DNA of 64,000 nt from an uncultured Actinomycetes bacterium (GTDB taxonomy: Bacteria > Actinomycetota > Thermoleophilia > UBA2241), in the NCBI GenBank assembly GCA_963767005.1, contig CAVYCN010000003.1:224001-288000 (forward strand), read 5' to 3'. Position numbers and translations under genes: made by a program. The stretch's first letter is position 1; every line of letters starts with the position of its first letter. The notes beneath the pieces are model-generated. The model worked only from the letters and a program-made list of their open reading frames with translations, did not search any database and was not told where the DNA came from. Below, in pieces: positions 10,984-56,783 of the stretch.

Positions 10984-12051
10984 ATGCGGACACTCACCCT
11001 CGGCGATCGTGGCAAAGAAGTCTCCGACGTGCAGAAACGCCTGCACGCGCTGGGCTACGAGCTCGGCAGCGAGGGCGTCGACGGCTTTCTCGGGCCGCGC
11101 ACCCGCCTGGCCCTGCGCGCCTTTCAGCAGGAGCGCGGCCTGCTCGCCGACGGCGTCCTCGGGGCCAACACCTGGCGCGAGCTCGTCGAGGCCGGCTACG
11201 CGCTGGGCGACCGCCTGCTCTACCTGCGCGTGCCCAACTTCCGCGGCGACGACGTGCTCGCCCTGCAGGTGAAGCTCGACCTGCTCGGCTTCAACGCCGG
11301 CCCCGAGCGTGGCATCTTCGACAGGTCCGTCGAGCGCGCGCTGATCGACTTCCAGCGCAACGCCGGCCTGCCGTCCGACGGCATCGTCGGCGACGACACC
11401 CTGCGCAAGCTCGACGCGCTGCGCAAGGCCGAGTCGGGCCGCGAGGGCAAGAAGATCCCCGACCGCGACGAAGGCTTCGTGCCCGAGACCAGCCTGGCCG
11501 GCGCGGTCATCGTGATCGACCCCGGGCACGGTGGTCAGGACGTCGGCATCGTCTCGCCCGGCGGGCGGCGCGAGAAGGACCTCACGCTCGCCGTCGGCCT
11601 GCGCCTGGCCGAGATGCTGCGGGCCGAGGGCAGCCGCGTGGTCATGACGCGCGAATCCGACCAGACCGTGCCGCTCTACGTGCGCACCGACGCCGCCGAC
11701 ACGGCCACCGCGACCTACCTCGTCTCACTGCACTTCAACGCCAACGAGAGCCCCGCCGCGGACGGTGCCGTCTGTTACTACTTCCAGCGCAGCCACTACT
11801 ACTCCGAGCACGGCGCCCGCCTGGCCGACTACATCGGCGCCGAGGTCGGGCGCCTGTCCCCGGCCGGTTTCATCGCCGGCCTGGGGCGTAACTTCGCCAT
11901 GCTGCGCGAGCCCACCGCGATCGCCGTGCTGGTCGAGCCGCTGTTCCTCACCAACCCCGCCGACGACGCCCGCGCCGGGCGCGCCGACTACATCGAGGCC
12001 GTGGCACGCGCCATCGTGACCGGCTTCACGCGCTACCTCTCACGGGCGTGA
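10984..12051 (+). CDS. N-acetylmuramoyl-L-alanine amidase with two peptidoglycan-binding domains (CwlM-like)
   Basis: Two PG_binding_1 repeats (DGFLGPRT..AFQ; FQRNAGLPSDGIVG) plus Amidase_3 motifs IDPGHGG, EK, SLHFN, LVEP. Confidence 0.88.
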   Translation: MRTLTLGDRGKEVSDVQKRLHALGYELGSEGVDGFLGPRTRLALRAFQQERGLLADGVLGANTWRELVEAGYALGDRLLYLRVPNFRGDDVLALQVKLDLLGFNAGPERGIFDRSVERALIDFQRNAGLPSDGIVGDDTLRKLDALRKAESGREGKKIPDRDEGFVPETSLAGAVIVIDPGHGGQDVGIVSPGGRREKDLTLAVGLRLAEMLRAEGSRVVMTRESDQTVPLYVRTDAADTATATYLVSLHFNANESPAADGAVCYYFQRSHYYSEHGARLADYIGAEVGRLSPAGFIAGLGRNFAMLREPTAIAVLVEPLFLTNPADDARAGRADYIEAVARAIVTGFTRYLSRA

Positions 12052-12911
12052 GCACCGGGCCGACCGACGACGACGGCGGGATCGCTTTCACCGCGACCCA
12101 GCGCCAGCGCCTGCACGAGCTGGGCGCCGACGCCGCGGCCGGCGGGCGGACCTTCGCCGACGCGGGCGCGCGCGACGCGGCCTTCCGCGACCTCGAGACG
12201 AGCTTCGCCGCCGCCAGCCGCGCCGCCCTCGACGCGCTGCGCGCCGGGTCGCGCGTCCCGGCGCTGCGCCGTCTCGAACAGGCGCTGCGGGCGGCGCTCA
12301 GCGACGCCGGCCTGGTCGAAGTCGTGACGCCGACGATCGTCGGAGTCGAGGCGCTGCGCAAGATGGGCATCGAGCCGGGCGGCGAGCTTGCCGAGCAGGT
12401 CTTCTGGCTCGACCGCGACCGCTGCCTGCGGCCCATGCTCGCGCCCAACCTCTACACCCTGATGCGACGCCTGGCGCGGGTGTGGCGGCAGCCCTTCGCG
12501 ATCTACGAGATCGGCTCGTGCTTTCGCCGCGACACCAAGGGCAGCCGCCACCTGAACGAGTTCACGATGCTCAACCTCGTCGAGCTCGGCACGCCGCTCG
12601 AGCGCCGCGACGACCGCCTGCGCGAGCTCGCCGCGGTCGTGCTCGACGCGGCCGGCGTGACCGGCCACGAGCTCGTGCGCAAGCACTCCGAGGTGTACGG
12701 CGACGAGCTCGACGTAGTGGTCGCCGGCGTCGAGGTCTGCTCCACGGCCCTGGGGCCGCACCCGCTCGACGACGCCTGGGGCATCACCGATCCCTGGGTC
12801 GGCCTCGGCTTCGGGCTCGAGCGGCTGCTCGTGGCGCGCGACGGCCTGGCCGGCATCGAGCGCGTCGGCCGCAGCGTGAGCTACCTCGACGGCGTGCGGC
12901 TGCAGCTCTAG
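12048..12911 (+). CDS. pylSc: Pyrrolysyl-tRNA synthetase, C-terminal catalytic subunit
   Basis: FTATQRQRLHEL, CLRPMLAPNLY, EIGSCFRRDTKGSRHLNEFTMLNLVE, SEVYGDELD, GPHPLD.AWGI..PWVGLGFGLERLL; matches the bacterial split-PylRS type; TAG stop. Confidence 0.96.
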   Translation: MSTGPTDDDGGIAFTATQRQRLHELGADAAAGGRTFADAGARDAAFRDLETSFAAASRAALDALRAGSRVPALRRLEQALRAALSDAGLVEVVTPTIVGVEALRKMGIEPGGELAEQVFWLDRDRCLRPMLAPNLYTLMRRLARVWRQPFAIYEIGSCFRRDTKGSRHLNEFTMLNLVELGTPLERRDDRLRELAAVVLDAAGVTGHELVRKHSEVYGDELDVVVAGVEVCSTALGPHPLDDAWGITDPWVGLGFGLERLLVARDGLAGIERVGRSVSYLDGVRLQL

Positions 12912-16091: not shown

Positions 16092-16433
16092 CTAGTGTCC
16101 GGTGTCCCGCTCGCGCAGGAACGACCCGTAGCCCCGCCGGAACTTGGTCGCGGCGTACTTCTGCAGCTTCCACTCCGGGATGCGGCACTGCGGGCAGGCC
16201 TCGAAGAAGAGCTTGTTGCGCAGCCAGCGCGCCGAGCGGCTCGTCTTGGAGTCGCGCACGATCATGACCTTGCCGCAATGGGTAGTCAGGCGCGCCCTGC
16301 TGCCCAGCACCTCGAACTCCTTGACGCCGTGCAGCAGGCCGCGGCGCGAGGGCCACAGCTTCATCTTCTCGACGAGCCTGAAGAGCGGCACCTGCTTGCG
16401 GTAGTAGACGACCTTGTTGGGATCGGTGGGCAC
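16092..16433 (-). CDS. pylSn: Pyrrolysyl-tRNA synthetase, N-terminal tRNA-binding subunit
   Basis: YYRK..LVEKMKLWPSRRGLLHGVK, THCG, SRSARWLRNK, CPQCRIPEWKLQKY; TAG stop. Confidence 0.95.
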   Translation of the reverse strand: MPTDPNKVVYYRKQVPLFRLVEKMKLWPSRRGLLHGVKEFEVLGSRARLTTHCGKVMIVRDSKTSRSARWLRNKLFFEACPQCRIPEWKLQKYAATKFRRGYGSFLRERDTGH

Positions 16434-16523
16434 GCCTGCGAGTGTAGCAAAGCCGGGCGGCCGCGAGGAACGCGGGCGGCGGCGCCGAAGCGGAACTTTT
16501 CACAGTCGTCTATCATCTGACCA

Positions 16524-18908
16524 GTGGCGCGACAGGCAGGCGCGGCCAGCGAGCGAGCGGAGTCGCACGAGGTGACGGGCAGGACCGAAGGAGCACGACG
16601 GCGGGGCGCCGGGCGTCCCCACGCCGTGCGCCTACGCCCCGCCCCGGGCACACGCCTCCACCGCCGCCTGCCGATCACGGCCTGGCTACCCACCTATCAG
16701 CGCCGCTTCCTGCGCGACGACACGATCGCCGCGCTGACCGTCATCGGCCTGCTCCTGCCCGAGTGCATGGCCTACGCGCAGATCGCCGGCGTGCCGCCCC
16801 AGGCCGGCCTCTACGCCACGCTGGCCGGCCTGACCGTCTACGCCCTCTTCGGCACCTCGCGCCAGATCATCTGCTCGCCGACCTCGACGGCCGCCATCAT
16901 GGCGGCCGCCGTCGTGGCCGCGCACGGCAGTCGCAGCCCCGCGCAGGCCATCACTCTGGTGGCGATGGTGGCCGTCATCGTCGGCCTGTTCATGGTGATC
17001 GCCGGCGTCGCCCGCCTCGGCTTCATCTCGGAGTTCCTCGCCCGCCCCGTGGTCACCGGCTACGTGACCGGCCTGGCGATGACCATCATCGCGCGGCAGG
17101 TGCCGAGCCTGCTCGGCATCCACGTCACGACCTCGGCCGACTTCTTCCGGGTCGCCTGGGCCGACCTCACGCACCTCGACGAGGCCAGCCTGGCGACGGC
17201 CGCGCTCAGCGCGGTCGCCCTCACCCTCCTGTTCCTCGCCCGGCGCTGGCCGCGCTTGCCGGGCGCGCTCACCGTGCTCGTGCTCGGCGTGATCGCGGCG
17301 GCCGTCCTGCACCTTGGCAGTCACGGCGTGGCCGTCGTGGGCACCATCCCGAGCGGCCTGCCGCTGCCGCGGCTGCCCCACCTGCACGGCGTCGACCTCG
17401 TCACGCTGCTGCCCAGCGCCGCCGGCATCGCCATCGTCGTCTACGCCGAGGCGCTGTCCGGGGCGCGGACCTTCGCCGTGCGCCATAGCTACGAGATCGA
17501 CGCCAACCAGGAGCTCGTGGCGCTCGGCCTGTCGAACATGAGCTCCGGCGCCTTCGGCGGCATCGTCGTGAGCGGCGGCCTGTCGGGCTCCGCCCTCGCC
17601 GACACGAGCGGCGCGCAGTCGCAGCTCACCGCCCTGATCGGCGCCGGCGTGCTGCTCGTCATGGTCTTCACCGTCACGCGCGTCGGCCACGACCTGCCCG
17701 AGGCGATCCTCGGCGCGGTCGTGGTGCGCGCCGTCTGGGGCCTGATCGACTTCGGCGCCCTGCGTCGCTTCGCCGGCGTGCGCGTGCTCGACGCCGCCCC
17801 GGCGGTCGCCGCTCTCATCGGCGTCCTCGCTCTGGGCGTGCTGCCCGGCCTGGGGGTGGCCGTCGGTCTGTCGCTCGCCATCCTGATCTACCGCTCGAGC
17901 CGGCCCCACGCCGCGGTGCTCGGGCGGGTGCCCCACTCCAAGACCTACAGCGACGTGTCGCGCCATCCCGAGAACGAGACGTTCCCCGGCCTGCTGATCT
18001 TCCGTCTCGACGGCCAGCTCTTCTTCGCCAATGCCGGCTTTGCCGTCGACCGTCTGAACCAGTTGCTCTCCGCCATGCAACCGTCGCCCCGCGTCGTGAT
18101 CTGGAACATGGAGTCGACCACCGACCTCGACGTGACGGCCGCCGAGACGCTGCTGCGCCTCACCCGCACCCTGCGCGAGAGCGGCCGCGACGTCGTGTTC
18201 GCCCGCGTCGGCTCGGCCGTGATCGACGTCTTCGGGCGCTGCGGCATGCTCGAGCTGATCGGCGAGGACCACCTCTTCCTCACGGTGGACAGCGCCGTGC
18301 AGGACTGCCTGCACAGCCGCCTCGCGGTGATCGCGGCGCTCGAGGCGCAGCTCAAAGAGGCGACGGCGGCCTGCATCATCGCTCACGGCGTGGCCGCCGG
18401 CGAGGTCACCGTGGCCGACGCCTACCGGACGATCGCCGACATCGAGGGCCGCGGCGACGCCATGCGTGGCGAGCTCGTCGCCCGCCTGTCGGGCGTGCTC
18501 GTCGCGCCGATCGACCGCGAGGACCTGTTCCGCCTCTCGCGCTCGATCGACGACGTCCTCGACAACCTGCGCGACTTCATCCGCGAGTGGGACCTCTACG
18601 AGATCGATGCCGCGAGCGCCTACCTGGGCCTGCTCGACGCCACCGCCGACGCGATCGCCGACCTCAAGCGCGCCGTACACGCCGTGGCCACCGACCCCAA
18701 GGACGTGAAGCAGGCGCTCACCTCGAAGGAGTCGGCCGAGGAGATCCGCCGGCTCTACGACGTCGAGCTCGGCCGGCTGTTCCACGGCACGCTCACGATG
18801 GAGGTCGTGAAGTGCCGCGAGGTGCTGCGCAGGCTCGACGTCGTCGGCCTGCGCTTGAACGAGGCCGCCGACCGGCTCTCCGACGCGGCCATCAAGCGCT
18901 GGGCCTGA
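16524..18908 (+). CDS. SulP anion transporter with STAS domain fused to a C-terminal DUF47/PhoU-like domain
   Basis: PECMAYAQIAGVPPQAGLY, DANQEL.ALGLSN, STAS FRLDGQLFFAN; C-terminal IEGRGD...PIDREDLFRLSRSIDDVLD; start uncertain. Confidence 0.85.
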   Translation: MARQAGAASERAESHEVTGRTEGARRRGAGRPHAVRLRPAPGTRLHRRLPITAWLPTYQRRFLRDDTIAALTVIGLLLPECMAYAQIAGVPPQAGLYATLAGLTVYALFGTSRQIICSPTSTAAIMAAAVVAAHGSRSPAQAITLVAMVAVIVGLFMVIAGVARLGFISEFLARPVVTGYVTGLAMTIIARQVPSLLGIHVTTSADFFRVAWADLTHLDEASLATAALSAVALTLLFLARRWPRLPGALTVLVLGVIAAAVLHLGSHGVAVVGTIPSGLPLPRLPHLHGVDLVTLLPSAAGIAIVVYAEALSGARTFAVRHSYEIDANQELVALGLSNMSSGAFGGIVVSGGLSGSALADTSGAQSQLTALIGAGVLLVMVFTVTRVGHDLPEAILGAVVVRAVWGLIDFGALRRFAGVRVLDAAPAVAALIGVLALGVLPGLGVAVGLSLAILIYRSSRPHAAVLGRVPHSKTYSDVSRHPENETFPGLLIFRLDGQLFFANAGFAVDRLNQLLSAMQPSPRVVIWNMESTTDLDVTAAETLLRLTRTLRESGRDVVFARVGSAVIDVFGRCGMLELIGEDHLFLTVDSAVQDCLHSRLAVIAALEAQLKEATAACIIAHGVAAGEVTVADAYRTIADIEGRGDAMRGELVARLSGVLVAPIDREDLFRLSRSIDDVLDNLRDFIREWDLYEIDAASAYLGLLDATADAIADLKRAVHAVATDPKDVKQALTSKESAEEIRRLYDVELGRLFHGTLTMEVVKCREVLRRLDVVGLRLNEAADRLSDAAIKRWA

Positions 18909-18985: not shown

Positions 18986-19058
18986 TGGCGGGGAGTAGGG
19001 GAGTTACACCCCTCTACGTGGATTTAGAGTCCACGCTGATCCTTCCGATCGACCCCCC
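18986..19058 (-). tRNA. pylT: tRNA-Pyl (anticodon CUA)
   Basis: GGGGGGT C GATC-GGAAG-GATC A G CGTGGA-CTCTAAA-TCCACG TAG AGGGG-TGTAACT-CCCCT ACTCCCC G CCA: one nt between acceptor and D arms, 5-nt D loop, 6-bp anticodon stem, 3-nt variable loop, no TTC, G73, encoded CCA. Confidence 0.96.
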
Positions 19059-19101
19059 GCGCCGAGGCCAAGGGTAGCTCATCGGCGGCCGCGCGACAAA
19101 G

Positions 19102-19923
19102 TCAGCGCGTGAGCGCCTCGACGGCCATCGCGGCCACACCGAGGGCGAGCGGCTCGTGCACGAGCCGCTCGCCCAGCGCCCGGGCCGCGGCTGCCGTGAC
19201 GCCGGGCGGCAGGCCCGGCGAGCTCACCACGCCGTCGCTGCCCACCCAGCCGGCGTCGATCAGGTCGGGCGTGGGGGTGGCGTCGAGCACGAACCGGCTG
19301 CGCGCGAGGCCGTCGGCCAGCGTGACCGGCGTGACCTGCGGCAGCTCGGCGACGATGGGCGCGAGACGCGCCTCGTCGCGCTCGCAGACGAGCACGTCGG
19401 CGCCGAGCGTGACCAGACGGGCGGCGGCGGCCCGGCCGACGGGGCCGAGGCCGATCAGCAGGACGGGCCGGCCGGCGAGGCCGGCGGGCCCGGCGGCGGC
19501 CGCGAGCGCCGCGACGTAGGCGTGCGCCGTGCAGGGATCGTCGTCGGCGACCACGCGGCGCGCGAAGTCGAGCGCCAGGAACCTGCCGTCGTCGGCGGCG
19601 AAGACGAGGTCGTCGCCGGCCTTCAGGGCCTCGCCGAAGCCGGCCACGTCGGTGGCGTCGGTCACGCGGGCGCGGCAGCCCAGGCGGGCGCAGATGGCGG
19701 CGACGCAGTCGACGAAGCCGGGGATGACGCCCTCGCCGCTCGTGATCGGCACGACGGCGACGGCGGCCTGGGCGAGGGCGTCGCGGGCGACACCCGCGGA
19801 TGCGCCGCAGGCCCGCGCGGCCAGTGCGACGAAGTCGCAGCCGGTGAGCGCCACCAGGCGCCCCTCGACCTCGTCGAGATGCGCGGTCAGCGTACGGACG
19901 TCGTCCTCGACCAGTCTCGTCAC
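19102..19923 (-). CDS. pylD: Pyrrolysine synthase (3-methylornithyl-N6-L-lysine dehydrogenase)
   Basis: MTRL, VVPITSGEGVIPGF, TDVAGF, ADD..FLA, NAD-binding GLGPVG, PGLP.G, HEPLALGVAAM; GAGGAG RBS. Confidence 0.93.
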   Translation of the reverse strand: MTRLVEDDVRTLTAHLDEVEGRLVALTGCDFVALAARACGASAGVARDALAQAAVAVVPITSGEGVIPGFVDCVAAICARLGCRARVTDATDVAGFGEALKAGDDLVFAADDGRFLALDFARRVVADDDPCTAHAYVAALAAAAGPAGLAGRPVLLIGLGPVGRAAAARLVTLGADVLVCERDEARLAPIVAELPQVTPVTLADGLARSRFVLDATPTPDLIDAGWVGSDGVVSSPGLPPGVTAAAARALGERLVHEPLALGVAAMAVEALTR

Positions 19924-19941
19924 CGCGACTCCTCCTCGCCC

Positions 19942-21240
19942 CTACTCGAGCACGACGTCGAGGCCGTACTCGCCCGCCAGGCGGTCGACGGCGGCCGCGG
20001 CGCGCATGCGCGCCTCGGCCGCCGTCTCGCCTCTCGTCATGATCACGGCGACCCAGCCGCCTGCCCGGCTGCGGGCGCGCGCCTCGCGCGCCTCGCCGAG
20101 GTCGACCACCTTGGCCCCGAGCGCGCGTTCGACCGGCCCGTCGGTCAGCACCACGTCGGCGCCCCACAGGCCCTCGCAGCGACGCAGGGGACCGGCCGCC
20201 CCGACCACGTGCTCGCCCAGCACCTGCACCCGCCCGTCGGCGACGAGCACGTGCTCGTAGACGGCGCCGCGCCGGGCGGCGGTCGCGGCCGGTCCGGCGG
20301 CCAGATCGGCCGGCACGGCGCCGCTCGCGAACGTCTCGGCCAGGACCTGGACGATGTTGACGTCGCTCGCGTGGTAGGCGCAGGCCGGCGTCTGGCTGGG
20401 CAGCCGCGCGTCGATCTCGAGCACCTTGGGCACGCCGGCGTGCCCCATCATGACCTCGACATCCATCACGCCGCCCAGCCCGGCGGCGGCGCCCGCGCCG
20501 GTGCGACCGACGCCGGCCGCGAGGCGCCGGCTCACCTCGTCGAGCGCGGCCAGCGCCCCGTCGTCGATCAGGTCGGAGCCACCGCCCTGCGCGGCGGGGT
20601 CCTTCGCCGCCTGCGCGACCGGGGCGACGACGCGTTTGCAGTCCCAGCCCGCGTCGAACTCGAGCCAGGTGGGCGCCAGCGTGACCGTCGCGCCACCGTA
20701 CGAGACCATGTCGACCGAGAGCGAAGGCCCGGGCACGTACTCCTCGATGACGGCGTCGGCGCCGCTTGCGGCCAGACGGGCGCGCGCGAGCGCGAGCTCG
20801 GTATCCGACCAGACGAGCTCGACCTGCACGCTGCCGCTCCCCACGCTCGGCTTGACGATCACGGGAAAGCCGCAGGGCCAGGGCGCCGGGCGGGGCACGT
20901 CGAGCCGCGCGAACAGCTCGTTCGAGCGCAGCTTGGACTGGGTCACCGCGTAGGCGTCGGGGTCGAAGAGCAGCGGCACGCCCAGCCCTGGCACGAACGA
21001 GGCGAGAAAGGCGAGCGTGCGCTCGTCCTCGCAGGCCGGCAGCACGGCGTCGCACGACAGGAGCACCTCGCGAGTGCGGGCCGGGTCGACGGCGACGTCG
21101 AACACGTGGCTCTCGGCGGCCAGGCCGGCCGCCGGCCGCCCCGGGCGCCGGTCGACCAGCACGACGTCGTAACCGGCCTCGCCGGCCAGGTACGCCGCCT
21201 CGGTGCCCTGCAGCTTGCCGCCGACGACCGCGAGCCTCAT
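19942..21240 (-). CDS. pylC: 3-methylornithine--L-lysine ligase (ATP-grasp)
   Basis: VVGGKLQGTEAAYLA, FPVIVKPS.GSGS, EEYVPGPSLS, WDCKRV, LEIDARLPSQTP, GEHV; ATGA overlap with pylB; TAG stop. Confidence 0.94.
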   Translation of the reverse strand: MRLAVVGGKLQGTEAAYLAGEAGYDVVLVDRRPGRPAAGLAAESHVFDVAVDPARTREVLLSCDAVLPACEDERTLAFLASFVPGLGVPLLFDPDAYAVTQSKLRSNELFARLDVPRPAPWPCGFPVIVKPSVGSGSVQVELVWSDTELALARARLAASGADAVIEEYVPGPSLSVDMVSYGGATVTLAPTWLEFDAGWDCKRVVAPVAQAAKDPAAQGGGSDLIDDGALAALDEVSRRLAAGVGRTGAGAAAGLGGVMDVEVMMGHAGVPKVLEIDARLPSQTPACAYHASDVNIVQVLAETFASGAVPADLAAGPAATAARRGAVYEHVLVADGRVQVLGEHVVGAAGPLRRCEGLWGADVVLTDGPVERALGAKVVDLGEAREARARSRAGGWVAVIMTRGETAAEARMRAAAAVDRLAGEYGLDVVLE

Positions 21241-22370
21241 GCGGGGCGCTCGGCGGCCGCCACCCCGTCGCCGCCCGCGGCGATCGCGGCCGCCGCCCGG
21301 CGGCCGCGCGCGGCCGCCACCCAGGCGGCGTACTCGGCCGCGCTCGCGACCCGCAAGCCTGACTTGGCCAGCCGTTCCACGACGACGGGCGCGGTGCGCA
21401 AGCCGGCGTCGATGTCGAGCTCGGACTGCGAGACGCCGGCGAGACCGGTGTGGGGCGGCACGAGCGACGTGACGACGTTCGCGCCGGCGGCGATGCGCGA
21501 CTCGAGGCCGGCGATGCCGTCGACGTCGAGCGACGCGGGGATCAACCGGTCGGGCATGGCCAGGCGCATGGTGGCGATCGTGACGAGCTCGCCGAGCCGT
21601 CCGGCCGGTCGCAGGTCGGCGAGCGGGGTGCCGCGCTGCGGCACGAAGGTCATGACGCGCACCTGGTCGAGCGGCTCGGCCCGCATGGCGGTCACCGTCA
21701 TGGCGCGCTCGGCCACCGTCTCGCCGACGCCGAGCAGCATGCCGTCCTCGACCAGCATGCCGCGCGCGGCGGCGTCGAGTCGCGCCTGGGCGCGCTCGTC
21801 GAAGTCCTGACCGACCCGCAGGCGGTCGTACAGCTCGCGGGCCTGCGTCTCCTGGTAGCAGGCGTACCACTCGGCGCCGGTCGCGGCCAGAGCGGCGAGG
21901 GCGCCGGGCCCGAGCACGCCCGGCGAGGCCATCACCGGCAGGCCGGTGGTGGCGCGCACCGCCGACACGAGCACGAGAAAGGCGTCGAACTCGCGGCCCT
22001 CGCGGTAGCGCGGGTCCTCGCCCATGGTGAGGTCGATCAGGTGGACGCCTGATCCGGCGAGGCCGACGCTGATCGCCACGACCTCGTCGAGCGACTTGCG
22101 GTACCGCGGCCCCGCGCGGTTGCTGCGACGGTACAGGCAGAACGTGCAGTCGTTGCGACAGTACGTCGAGAAGTAGACGAAGCCGTAGAGAAAGACGGCG
22201 TCGCCGAACCGCCGCCGGCGCAGCTCGCTCGCGGCGGCGAACAGGTCGGCCGCCGCGGCCTGGTCGTCGACCGCGAGCAGCGTGGCGATCTCGCTGTCCG
22301 ACGGCCCCTGCCCGGCGAGCGCCCGTTCCAGGATCGGAGCGATGGCGGCCGACGCCGCGTCGGGCCTCAT
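21237..22370 (-). CDS. pylB: Methylornithine synthase (radical SAM lysine mutase)
   Basis: VFLYGFVYFSTYCRNDCTFCLYR, SGVHLIDLTMGEDP, WYACYQET, QVRVMTFVPQ.GTP, LIPASLDVDG, GANVVTS, GLAGV. Confidence 0.95.
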   Translation of the reverse strand: MRPDAASAAIAPILERALAGQGPSDSEIATLLAVDDQAAAADLFAAASELRRRRFGDAVFLYGFVYFSTYCRNDCTFCLYRRSNRAGPRYRKSLDEVVAISVGLAGSGVHLIDLTMGEDPRYREGREFDAFLVLVSAVRATTGLPVMASPGVLGPGALAALAATGAEWYACYQETQARELYDRLRVGQDFDERAQARLDAAARGMLVEDGMLLGVGETVAERAMTVTAMRAEPLDQVRVMTFVPQRGTPLADLRPAGRLGELVTIATMRLAMPDRLIPASLDVDGIAGLESRIAAGANVVTSLVPPHTGLAGVSQSELDIDAGLRTAPVVVERLAKSGLRVASAAEYAAWVAAARGRRAAAAIAAGGDGVAAAERPA

Positions 22371-22446: not shown

Positions 22447-22455
22447 CATGGTACC
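22447..22455 (-). promoter_or_regulatory. Possible extended -10 promoter of pylBCDT
   Basis: TGgTACCAT on the minus strand about 77 bp upstream of the pylB ATG. Confidence 0.35.
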
Positions 22456-22476
22456 AGAGCCCGCGAGGAGCCCGAT

Positions 22477-54983: not shown

Positions 54984-56783
54984 TCACATGCTCTGCGGCG
55001 CGCTCACTCCGAGCAGCTCGAGGCCCTTGGCGAGCGTCGTGCGGCACACTTCGCACAGCCCCGTGCGGAAGGCGGTCGTAGCGGGGTCGTCGCCGATCAC
55101 GCGGCAGTTGCGGTAGAAGACGTGGAACTCGGCGGCGAGCTCGCCGAGATAGGCGTTCATCCGGTGCGGACCGCGCCGCTCGACCGCCTCGAGCACCACC
55201 ACGGGGAACCTCGCCAGCGCGCGCACCAGGTTGCGCTCGTACGGCCCGACCGCGACGCCGCCGAACGACGGCAGCGTCACCGCCGCTCCGGCGTCGTGGG
55301 CGCCGGCGAGCAAGCCCAGCACCTCGGGCGGGAGGGCCTCGGCATCCTCGAGGTTGCGCAGCACGCTGCAGATGCGGGCGTGGGCGTACTGCACGTAGAA
55401 GACCGGGTTCTTGTTCGACTGCTCGACGGCGAGGTCGAGGTCGAGGTCGAGCGTGGAGTCGTGGCTGCGACCGACCATGAAGAACCGCACGGCATCGACG
55501 CCGATCGCGTCGATCAGGTCGTCGACGGTGACGATGTCGCCGCGGCGCTTGGACATGCGCCGCGCCACGCCGCTCTCCAGCAGGTTGACGAGCTGCCCGA
55601 TGATGAGCTCGAGGCGGTCGGGGTCGTGCGGCGGCAGGGCCGTGAACATGGCCTTCATGCGCGGCACGTAGCCGTGGTGGTCGGCGCCCCAGATGTCGAT
55701 CAGGTGCTCGAAGCCGCGGTCCATCTTGTCGCGGTGATAGGCGATGTCCGACAGAAAGTACGTGGGCGCACCGGTCGTGCGGATGAGCACGCGGTCCTTG
55801 TCGTCGCCGTAGTCGGTGGTGCGCAGCCACACCGCGCCGTCGGCGTCGAACAGCTCGCCGTCGGCATCGAGCTCGCGCAGCGCCTTGCCGACCTCGCCGG
55901 CGAAGCCCCGATGCGGCGTGCCGCCGTCGTACAGCGTGGCCTCGCTCTTCCACACGTCGAACGGCACCCGCAGGCGTTCGAGCGTGGCCCGGAAGTTGTC
56001 GAGGATACGATCGCGGCCCCAGACCCTGATCTCGTCGAGCACCGTGTCCGGCGCCTTCGTGACGTCGGGGGCGACCGCGGCGAGGGGCTCGCGGTAGCGC
56101 TCGCCCACCTCGTCGATCAGGCGGTCTGCCACGTCGAGCACGTAGTCGCCGAGGTAGCCGTCGTCGGGCACCGGCAGCTCGAGCCCCAGGCGCTGGCCGT
56201 AACGCGCCGCGAGCGACTGGCCGAACTTGGCCATCTGCGTGCCGAAGTCGTTCACGTAGAATTCGCGGGTCACGTCGTGGCCGGCGTACGCGAAGAGCCG
56301 GCAGAGGGCGTCGCCCATCGACGCGTAGCGGGCGTGGCCGACGTGCAGCGGGCCCGTCGGGTTGACGCTCACGAACTCGACGTTCACTCGCCGGCGGCTC
56401 GCAGGTGGGAGCACGCCGCGGCCGTGGTCGGCGCCGAGGGCGAGCATACGGCGCGTGGTCGCGCGGTACCACTCGTCGCTCAGGAACAGGTTGAGAAAGC
56501 CGGGACCGGCGACCTCGTAGCGCGTGCACAGCCCGGCGCCGGGACCGGCGCACCAGCGCTCGCCGAGCGCGGCCGCGACGTCACGCGGCCTGGCGCCGGC
56601 CCGCTTGGCGACGGCGAGCGCGACGGGCGTCGAGACGTCGCCGAACTCGGGCTTCGGGGGGATGGTGAGCTCGACGGCCGGCACTTCGCCGACCGCAGGG
56701 GCCACCTCGACGAGGGTGCGCGCGAGCGATCGTCCGAGGCCGGTCAGGCCGTACAGATCCTCGTGCACGTCGCGCTCGCTCAT
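54984..56783 (-). CDS. argS: Arginine--tRNA ligase
   Basis: AGPGFLN, EFVSVNPTGPLHVGHAR, WGADHHGY, MSKRRG, YVQYAHAR. Confidence 0.96.
   Translation of the reverse strand: MSERDVHEDLYGLTGLGRSLARTLVEVAPAVGEVPAVELTIPPKPEFGDVSTPVALAVAKRAGARPRDVAAALGERWCAGPGAGLCTRYEVAGPGFLNLFLSDEWYRATTRRMLALGADHGRGVLPPASRRRVNVEFVSVNPTGPLHVGHARYASMGDALCRLFAYAGHDVTREFYVNDFGTQMAKFGQSLAARYGQRLGLELPVPDDGYLGDYVLDVADRLIDEVGERYREPLAAVAPDVTKAPDTVLDEIRVWGRDRILDNFRATLERLRVPFDVWKSEATLYDGGTPHRGFAGEVGKALRELDADGELFDADGAVWLRTTDYGDDKDRVLIRTTGAPTYFLSDIAYHRDKMDRGFEHLIDIWGADHHGYVPRMKAMFTALPPHDPDRLELIIGQLVNLLESGVARRMSKRRGDIVTVDDLIDAIGVDAVRFFMVGRSHDSTLDLDLDLAVEQSNKNPVFYVQYAHARICSVLRNLEDAEALPPEVLGLLAGAHDAGAAVTLPSFGGVAVGPYERNLVRALARFPVVVLEAVERRGPHRMNAYLGELAAEFHVFYRNCRVIGDDPATTAFRTGLCEVCRTTLAKGLELLGVSAPQSM

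Follow-up and report, generated by a model that had tools for sequence, protein, structure and literature searches.

The window analysed here, a stretch of 64,000 nucleotides from the genome of an uncultured Actinomycetes bacterium (Thermoleophilia, UBA2241), carries pylT, the gene of a 73-nt tRNA-Pyl (CUA) of the class S type, at 18986-19058 on the minus strand, as identified by ARAGORN, folding, a covariance model and covariation. The other pyl genes were assigned with family models, all above the cut-offs. pylB (21237-22370; TIGR03910, 428.6 bits), pylC (19942-21240; TIGR03909, 279.1 bits), which has a TAG stop in frame with pylD, and pylD (19102-19923; TIGR03911, 194.7 bits) precede pylT on the minus strand. 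The gene for the separate tRNA-binding PylRS subunit, pylSn (16092-16433; TIGR03912, 122.2 bits), lies on the same strand 2.55 kb further on, beyond a sulP-STAS gene (16524-18908, plus strand), which is convergent on pylT, sits between pylT and pylSn and ends 78 nt from the tRNA; sulP adjoins pylT in 1 of 19 related loci examined. The catalytic subunit gene pylSc (12048-12911; TIGR02367, 297.8 bits) is 6 kb from pylT on the opposite, plus strand and overlaps the stop of the upstream amidase gene, with a radical SAM gene, a corrinoid protein gene, marR and yceI between pylSn and pylSc. In the PDB, the window PylSc is matched best by a 288-aa PylRS, that of 3dsq and 2zni (E 1e-87). The amidase is an N-acetylmuramoyl-L-alanine amidase (10984-12911 with the overlapping pylSc, plus strand), and 7 of the 19 related loci examined have it immediately before pylSc; these are all the loci that reach that far.

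This layout shares with the bacterial pylTScBCDSn/pylSnScBCD cluster, as described in passages of PMC3941956, the same six genes within 11 kb, the pylBCD order and a downstream pylSn, but it differs in running pylB-C-D-T, sulP (opposite strand), pylSn and then, further on, pylSc (opposite strand, behind the amidase gene), so that the arrangement headed by pylT, with every gene on the same strand, is absent. The pyl genes would apparently be split into four transcription units, namely pylBCD, pylT, pylSn and amidase-pylSc, and with four separate units the level of the tRNA need not track that of pylBCD. The initial annotation had placed the tRNA last in its operon, 43 bp after pylD; the distance is exact, as the pylD stop ends at 19102 and G1 of the tRNA is at 19058, and the terminal position holds for the pylB-C-D-T run, but not beyond it, since pylSn lies further on along the same strand behind sulP.

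The pyl reading frames of the window and its relatives show several peculiarities of their own. The TAG of pylC is separated from pylD by an 18-nt spacer (19924-19944, minus strand), and amber read-through would give a PylC-PylD fusion. We rejected such read-through as a conserved feedback device because an in-frame TAG occurs in just 3 of 28 loci, the window included; the pylC-pylD junction elsewhere among the 28 is mostly a 4-nt overlap with TGA. At L042:196-2310 (G006), a single reading frame covers both pylC and pylD, joined by a short linker, and reflects either a fusion that occurs naturally or an artefact of assembly. Another pylB-pylD pair, lacking pylC, lies at G000:C4:551818-554336, beside an amber mttB, a corrinoid protein gene and permease genes, and the same pairing is present at L023 (G033). 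Both pylSc and pylSn end in TAG (12909-12911, plus strand, and 16092-16094, minus strand), as do 8 of 12 pylSc and 17 of 38 pylSn genes of relatives, compared with about 33% of genes genome-wide; feedback or shared ancestry are possible explanations.

The gene itself is a real tRNA-Pyl of the amber-decoding type. ARAGORN called tRNA-Pyl (cta) at 18986-19058 and placed it on the minus strand, which had been left unstated before, and the minus-strand fold is a full cloverleaf of -33.5 kcal/mol (z -2.6), with 2 of 200 shuffled sequences equally good. Its acceptor stem is GGGGGGU/ACUCCCC, including G5-U68, followed by a single base, C8, between the acceptor and D stems, a D arm of GAUC-GGAAG-GAUC with a 5-nt D loop, and a 7-nt anticodon loop, CUCUAAA, with the anticodon CUA; the T loop UGUAACU lacks T-psi-C, the first pair is G1-C72, the discriminator is G73, and CCA is encoded. 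Thus, every hallmark read from the letters by the initial annotation (CUCUAAA, C8, UGUAACU, G73, CCA, G5-U68 and GGAAG) is present, and one base between acceptor and D stem, a 5-nt D loop and absence of T-psi-C are among the tRNA-Pyl features listed in a passage of PMC1851642. The anticodon stem has six Watson-Crick pairs plus a covarying seventh, in agreement with the tRNA-Pyl norm of at least 6 bp, and three bases (UAG) separate the 6-bp stem from the T stem, the first of which is predicted to pair, leaving AG as the variable loop. The generic tRNA model of Rfam scored pylT below its gathering threshold and did not report it, and we therefore built a dedicated covariance model from 41 of 58 distinct 72-nt tRNA-Pyl sequences of other taxa, with no member of the 73-nt type included. 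Even with its own type left out of the model, the window tRNA scored 82.6 bits (E 2.9e-19), compared with 17.6 bits for the runner-up in the window, and two of the checks proposed initially, ARAGORN and a covariance model, thus both bear out the assignment. It is the one tRNA-Pyl copy in the genome. A further ARAGORN call in the window, a tRNA-Val at 55243-55331 on the minus strand, has no Rfam support and a coding-like flank, and is likely false.

Separate bacterial genes for PylSn and PylSc, together with at least 75% identity of the tRNA to other bacterial tRNA-Pyl, place the system in class S, and its charging is likely the work of PylSc and PylSn, which are encoded by separate genes. The canonical 72-nt cloverleaf of classes N and S has one base between the D stem and the 6-bp anticodon stem; pylT has two and is thus a variant of that cloverleaf. 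Our verdict is a class S variant in an ordinary alternative gene position.

This extra base is the distinctive trait of the 73-nt tRNA-Pyl: two bases separate the D stem from the 6-bp stem in 21 of 21 sequences of the 73-nt type and one base in 58 of 58 72-nt tRNAs among the matches listed. The initial annotation had allowed for a seventh anticodon-stem pair, and this suggestion is strengthened: the second spacer base can pair with the first variable-loop base in all 21 distinct sequences (G-C 9, G-U 8, A-U 3 and C-G 1) and in 42 of 42 metagenome sequences (G-C 14, G-U 17, A-U 10 and C-G 1; 44 distinct matches from which 2 non-tRNAs were dropped), although all are kin and the counts overstate their independence. 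Such covariation suggests seven pairs in the anticodon stem and a variable loop of 2 nt (AG), which is the shape we predict for the pylT product, and it is likely that a lineage-wide extra base has lengthened the anticodon stem to seven pairs; a one-base insertion would bring the first variable-loop base into the seventh pair, with a 2-nt loop remaining. In three stems of the 73-nt tRNA-Pyl there are compensatory changes.

Alternatively, the extra base might follow the D stem as a linker without a partner, in which case the seventh pair would be an ordinary 26:44-type stack on a canonical core that offers nothing new to PylRS. Consistent with this, the equivalent bases of 72-nt tRNAs can pair in 32 of 58 sequences among the matches listed, 14 of the 17 archaeal tRNA-Pyl whose drawings show 6-bp stems could pair positions 26 and 44/45, and the covariance model based on 72-nt tRNAs handles the extra base as a simple insertion. 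However, the equivalent pair is unpaired in 19 of 41 aligned 72-nt tRNAs, whereas the 73-nt type gave no unpaired case in 21 plus 42 sequences with four pair types, and A never stands opposite C in these two sets although A-C is the commonest combination in 72-nt tRNAs (23 of 58 among the matches listed). We therefore regard the linker as a possible but doubtful account of the base. Matches from the literature on pyrrolysine in Thermoleophilia or UBA2241, pylT gene order and the tRNAPyl stem, mostly judged by their listings, included none describing this shape or promoter, and the portions seen of PMC11363022, PMC5424206 and PMC12626013 add nothing on this lineage.

The 73-nt type accounts for 32 tRNAs among the matches listed, 31 of them in records titled Thermoleophilia, Actinomycetes or Actinomycetota and one in Zixibacteria, and 36 relatives of the same family yielded the tRNA pattern in 32, pylSc in 32 and pylSn in 33, compared with pylSc in 1 of 24 genomes from other families of the class. 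A locus from another family of the class (L417, G044) has a 72-nt tRNA-Pyl with U73, a GGUC/GACC D stem and the order pylT-pylSn-pylSc, and is probably a separate acquisition. Metagenome loci L295-L414 include a 73-nt subgroup with a G2-U71 wobble and a variable base 8; two variants carry U73. One contig filed as viral (L234) ends in a tRNA of the 73-nt type, with no pyl gene detected on the contig, and this tRNA is possibly an integration site or host flank. In Acetohalobium, the use of pyrrolysine is reportedly dependent on the carbon source. For the actinobacteria, a PylSc from a Thermoleophilia bacterium and one from Actinobacteria bacterium ADurb.BinA094 are catalogued in part of PMC9630628, and these entries (MBE0528218.1 and OPZ42170.1) belong to the same PylRS class and by eye resemble the relatives found here; unlike the present analysis, the passages and supplement rows of PMC9630628 concerned do not describe tRNA shape, gene order or promoters.

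Does this shape set the tRNA apart functionally? The initial annotation had proposed it as a candidate new orthogonal tRNA on the grounds of C8, G5-U68 and the GGAAG D loop, and these grounds are weak, as each feature occurs elsewhere or varies. G5-U68 is found in 30 of 41 other bacterial tRNA-Pyl. A GGAAG D loop occurs in 2 of 58 72-nt tRNAs among the matches listed, in Bacillota. C8 is no more than a lineage marker: all 21 genome-derived sequences of the 73-nt type have it, as do 32 of the 42 from metagenomes, and among the genome matches listed it occurs in 1 of 58 72-nt tRNAs. According to passages of PMC1851642, the tRNA-Pyl of Desulfitobacterium hafniense has G5-U68 as well, and a G8C mutant of it lost just 8-fold. 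That tRNA and its PylSc and PylSn (class S; PDB 2ZNI) share with the window G1-C72, G73, G5-U68, the GAUC D stem, a 5-nt D loop starting with G14, the lack of T-psi-C and the split synthetase, so far as the same parts of PMC1851642 describe them; by the same account, the window tRNA differs in having 73 rather than 72 nt, C8 rather than G8, the covarying seventh pair and a 2-nt variable loop. In contrast to D. hafniense, moreover, pylT of the window stands behind pylD with its own predicted promoter, and pylSc is on the other strand.

Identity of the window tRNA is 68-85% (maximum 84.9%) to other bacterial tRNA-Pyl, with the Desulfosporosinus and Sporomusa types at about 80%, and 59-63% to archaeal ones. 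According to a passage of PMC11467909, cross-reaction occurs in some 90% of cases once tRNAs share at least 75% identity or synthetase cores at least 55%, so that cross-charging within class S is expected by default. Against 29 other bacterial PylSc, the core of the window PylSc reaches no more than 53% identity, slightly short of the 55% level. The shape change could counter the predicted cross-charging: passages of PMC11467909 and PMC7609411 have PylRS's N-terminal domain fitting against the tRNA variable loop, whose geometry parts of PMC11467909 and PMC7615293 give as the chief known means of keeping PylRS/tRNA pairs apart, and the altered junction is therefore the single reason for an orthogonality test. 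The class S pairs of Beattie et al. (PMC7615293, in the parts seen) belong to the same bacterial tRNA-Pyl group, in which the window tRNA exceeds the 75% clustering level against many bacterial tRNA-Pyl, but their exotic feature is a D loop of 6-8 nt, whereas the window D loop has 5 nt. An actinobacterial pair was absent from the passages of PMC7615293 and its one supplement that were consulted, and its sequence tables may include the 73-nt type. PylSn and PylSc have lineage-specific residues too, but as the lineage forms a single clade, no link between them and the altered tRNA can be drawn. Here we speculate, as a long shot, that the family has remodelled the core of its tRNA-Pyl (7-bp stem, 2-nt loop, PylSn-read surface) with PylSn and PylSc co-evolving, that the pair would be naturally orthogonal to synthetases of class N and to others of class S, and that the amber tRNA would be always on from a housekeeping promoter in a genome in which a third of the genes end in TAG. 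A natural tRNA-Pyl with a shorter loop and a longer stem, whose PylSc is at most 53% identical to others, would be a cheap addition to orthogonality screens for genetic-code expansion and is worth one slot, the gene position itself being ordinary.

That position was examined with a pattern scan of a genome collection which allowed either tRNA length (72 or 73 nt) and sampled at least 121 tRNA-Pyl loci, gene order being tallied where at least 2 kb were available on both sides. Among the matches listed, pylT never comes first in the 18 loci of the 73-nt type, where it lies inside the cluster in 16 and at its end in 2. The other bacterial loci number 28, with pylT at the head of the cluster in 15, inside it in 11 and last in 2, and of 21 archaeal loci, 14 start with pylT and 7 have it alone. 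The statement of the initial annotation that pylT usually comes first agrees with this tally for other bacteria and with a passage of PMC3941956, which likewise has pylT at the front in most cases. A position after pylD is not unusual, however: among the matches listed, 23 of the 32 loci of the 73-nt type and 20 of the 56 loci from other bacteria have the end of pylD no more than 700 nt upstream of pylT, and the two genes are neighbours again in records titled Peptococcaceae, Anaerovoracaceae, Dehalococcoidales and Deltaproteobacteria. The order pylD-then-pylT is a frequent alternative and an ordinary position. Over 47 loci, the gap between the two genes spans 15-1501 nt and is at most 156 nt in 33; together with the fact that pylT leads in none of the 18 loci of the 73-nt type, this may reflect selection for adjacency.

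The gap itself contains promoter-like boxes. Reading towards the tRNA, the 43 nt comprise TTGTCG (19099-19094), 17 nt, TACCCT (19076-19071) and 12 nt before G1, an arrangement which, from established consensus knowledge, we take to be a sigma-70-type promoter with a predicted -35 box at 19094-19099 (minus strand), just after the pylD stop, and a predicted -10 box at 19071-19076 (minus strand). In the 73-nt type, 47 of the 51 distinct upstream flanks carry a TANNNT box that ends 8-16 nt from the tRNA (10-12 nt in 44 cases), compared with a shuffle mean of 1.4 (maximum 6) and with 0, 0, 2, 0 and 0 in five windows further upstream; 4 of the 51 lack it in this interval. Metagenome loci, found by a pattern that does not touch the flank though not fully independent, being of the same lineage, have the box in 82 of 94 cases (shuffle mean 4.5, maximum 13; control windows 7, 2, 0, 3 and 2), most commonly as TACAAT, TAGAAT, TATCAT or TAGCCT. 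All 12 genomes of the genus have TTG 16-17 nt ahead of the -10 box, and the same -10 box lies 5-30 nt upstream of 25 of 49 tRNA calls in this genome. No enrichment of TANNNT was seen before pylC (7 of 35) or pylD (5 of 38), and 72-nt bacterial pylT genes have it in 19 of 53 cases (shuffle mean 20), where it carries no information because the flanks are A+T-richer. A stock promoter scan of the gap returned no site, since TACCCT fits only 3 of the 6 consensus bases; the scan is too strict for this G+C-rich genome. These boxes suggest that pylT likely has its own sigma-70-type promoter and its own start in the 43-nt gap and is likely switched on independently of pyrrolysine synthesis. RNA polymerase would start about 5 nt before G1, and RNase P would trim the short leader.

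The initial annotation had instead favoured cotranscription with pylBCD, tying amber decoding to pyrrolysine biosynthesis, and had named a separate start just upstream of pylT as what would speak against it; at the level of sequence, the conserved -35 and -10 boxes predict such a start. If the end of the pylBCD transcript were the main source of the tRNA, amber decoding would follow biosynthesis, and this idea draws on the shared strand, the 43-nt gap, the frequent proximity of pylD across the type noted above, and the same stock scan, which found no terminator-like site between pylD and pylT, so that pylBCD transcripts can run on into the tRNA gene. Against it, the spacing between the boxes and the tRNA stays the same however far away pylD lies, pylSc and pylSn lie outside the pylBCD unit too, and in 7 of 47 loci the gap is filled by an opposite-strand ORF, of two unrelated kinds; five of these seven loci appear by id in the box survey, and all five carry the box. 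The conserved box and the intervening opposite-strand genes make coupling to pylBCD unlikely, and we consider it improbable that the tRNA is made mainly in this way. Read-through from pylBCD may add to transcription of pylT, and a partial contribution of this kind is likely and compatible with the promoter of its own that we favour.

The other pyl units have putative promoter elements as well. A candidate extended -10 box of pylBCD (TGGTACCAT, 22448-22456, minus strand) has weaker support: 10 of 18 loci have TANNNT ahead of pylB, against a shuffle mean of 5.5 (maximum 10). For pylSn, a predicted extended -10 box (TGCTACACT, 16441-16449, minus strand) lies 7 nt before the start codon, and TANNNT occurs in 33 of 39 related pylSn upstream regions, grouped 6-13 nt before the start (shuffle mean 15); the pylSn mRNA is likely leaderless, judging from this spacing (16434-16449, minus strand).

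Potential clients of the tRNA are plentiful. In-frame TAG codons were found in 7 of 41 MttB, 8 of 8 MtbB and 1 of 4 MtmB matches, one TAG each and in a single aligned column per family, giving 16 amber methylamine methyltransferase genes, whose TAGs pylT is likely used to read. The genome also has a tRNA-Sec, and thus both expanded codes, and 34 of its 41 MttB-family matches are without TAG, so that its set of methyltransferases is large. An ABC solute-binding protein gene (G000:C13:17276 onward, plus strand) has a mid-gene TAG followed by 310 coding-like codons, and may be a pseudogene, a sequencing error or a non-methyltransferase pyrrolysine protein. Two alanine-racemase-like paralogs considered as new pyrrolysine proteins were rejected, as they end naturally at their TAG.

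TAG is nevertheless an ordinary stop here. A simple in-house gene caller assigned it to 937 of 2876 called genes (about 33%), some 15 of which are front halves of pyrrolysine genes, and in samples of 200-240 kb, three Pyl-positive genomes gave shares of 28-38% and four Pyl-negative ones 22-34%; the use of TAG is hence no lower than in relatives without pyrrolysine. A genome-wide reassignment of TAG to pyrrolysine, served by a constantly expressed tRNA, would fit the predicted promoter and the presence of pyl genes in 32-33 of 36 family genomes, but it is made very improbable by this undepleted use of TAG as a stop and by read-through candidates that are mostly methyltransferases or in-frame next genes. 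Equally improbable is a non-working relic, given that all identity elements are present, three stems show compensatory changes, the partner genes are intact, 16 amber clients exist and, according to a passage of PMC10805028, Actinobacteriota MAGs express Pyl-type mttB and mtbB.

Taken together, the data support a model in which a single tRNA-Pyl gene with its own predicted sigma-70-type promoter and a seventh anticodon-stem pair would be charged by PylSc and PylSn and read the TAGs of 16 methyltransferase genes under the control of pyrrolysine supply, to which we assign a probability of roughly 0.78; the sequence, the fold, all pyl genes, the aligned TAGs and the conserved promoter-like boxes are its directly shown components. 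With about a third of the genes ending in TAG, read-through is probably limited by pyrrolysine supply or charging, and with the tRNA on a promoter of its own the limit would have to lie there. Amber control thus likely resides in pyrrolysine supply, by analogy with Methanosarcina acetivorans, where supply and tRNA charging, not tRNA transcription, were measured to be limiting: on trimethylamine, as reported in part of PMC13663744, pylT stays constant while pylBCD rises about four-fold and charging increases from 21% to 58%. The two systems have an ambiguous TAG in common (passages of PMC13663744 and PMC12626013), and the independence of pylT from pylBCD, measured there, is inferred here; the host of the window differs in being bacterial and in having a split synthetase, about 33% TAG-ended genes and 16 amber methyltransferase genes. 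With a predicted stand-alone pylT promoter and a third of its genes ending in TAG, this organism would offer a bacterial test case for whether pyrrolysine supply or the level of the tRNA governs amber decoding.
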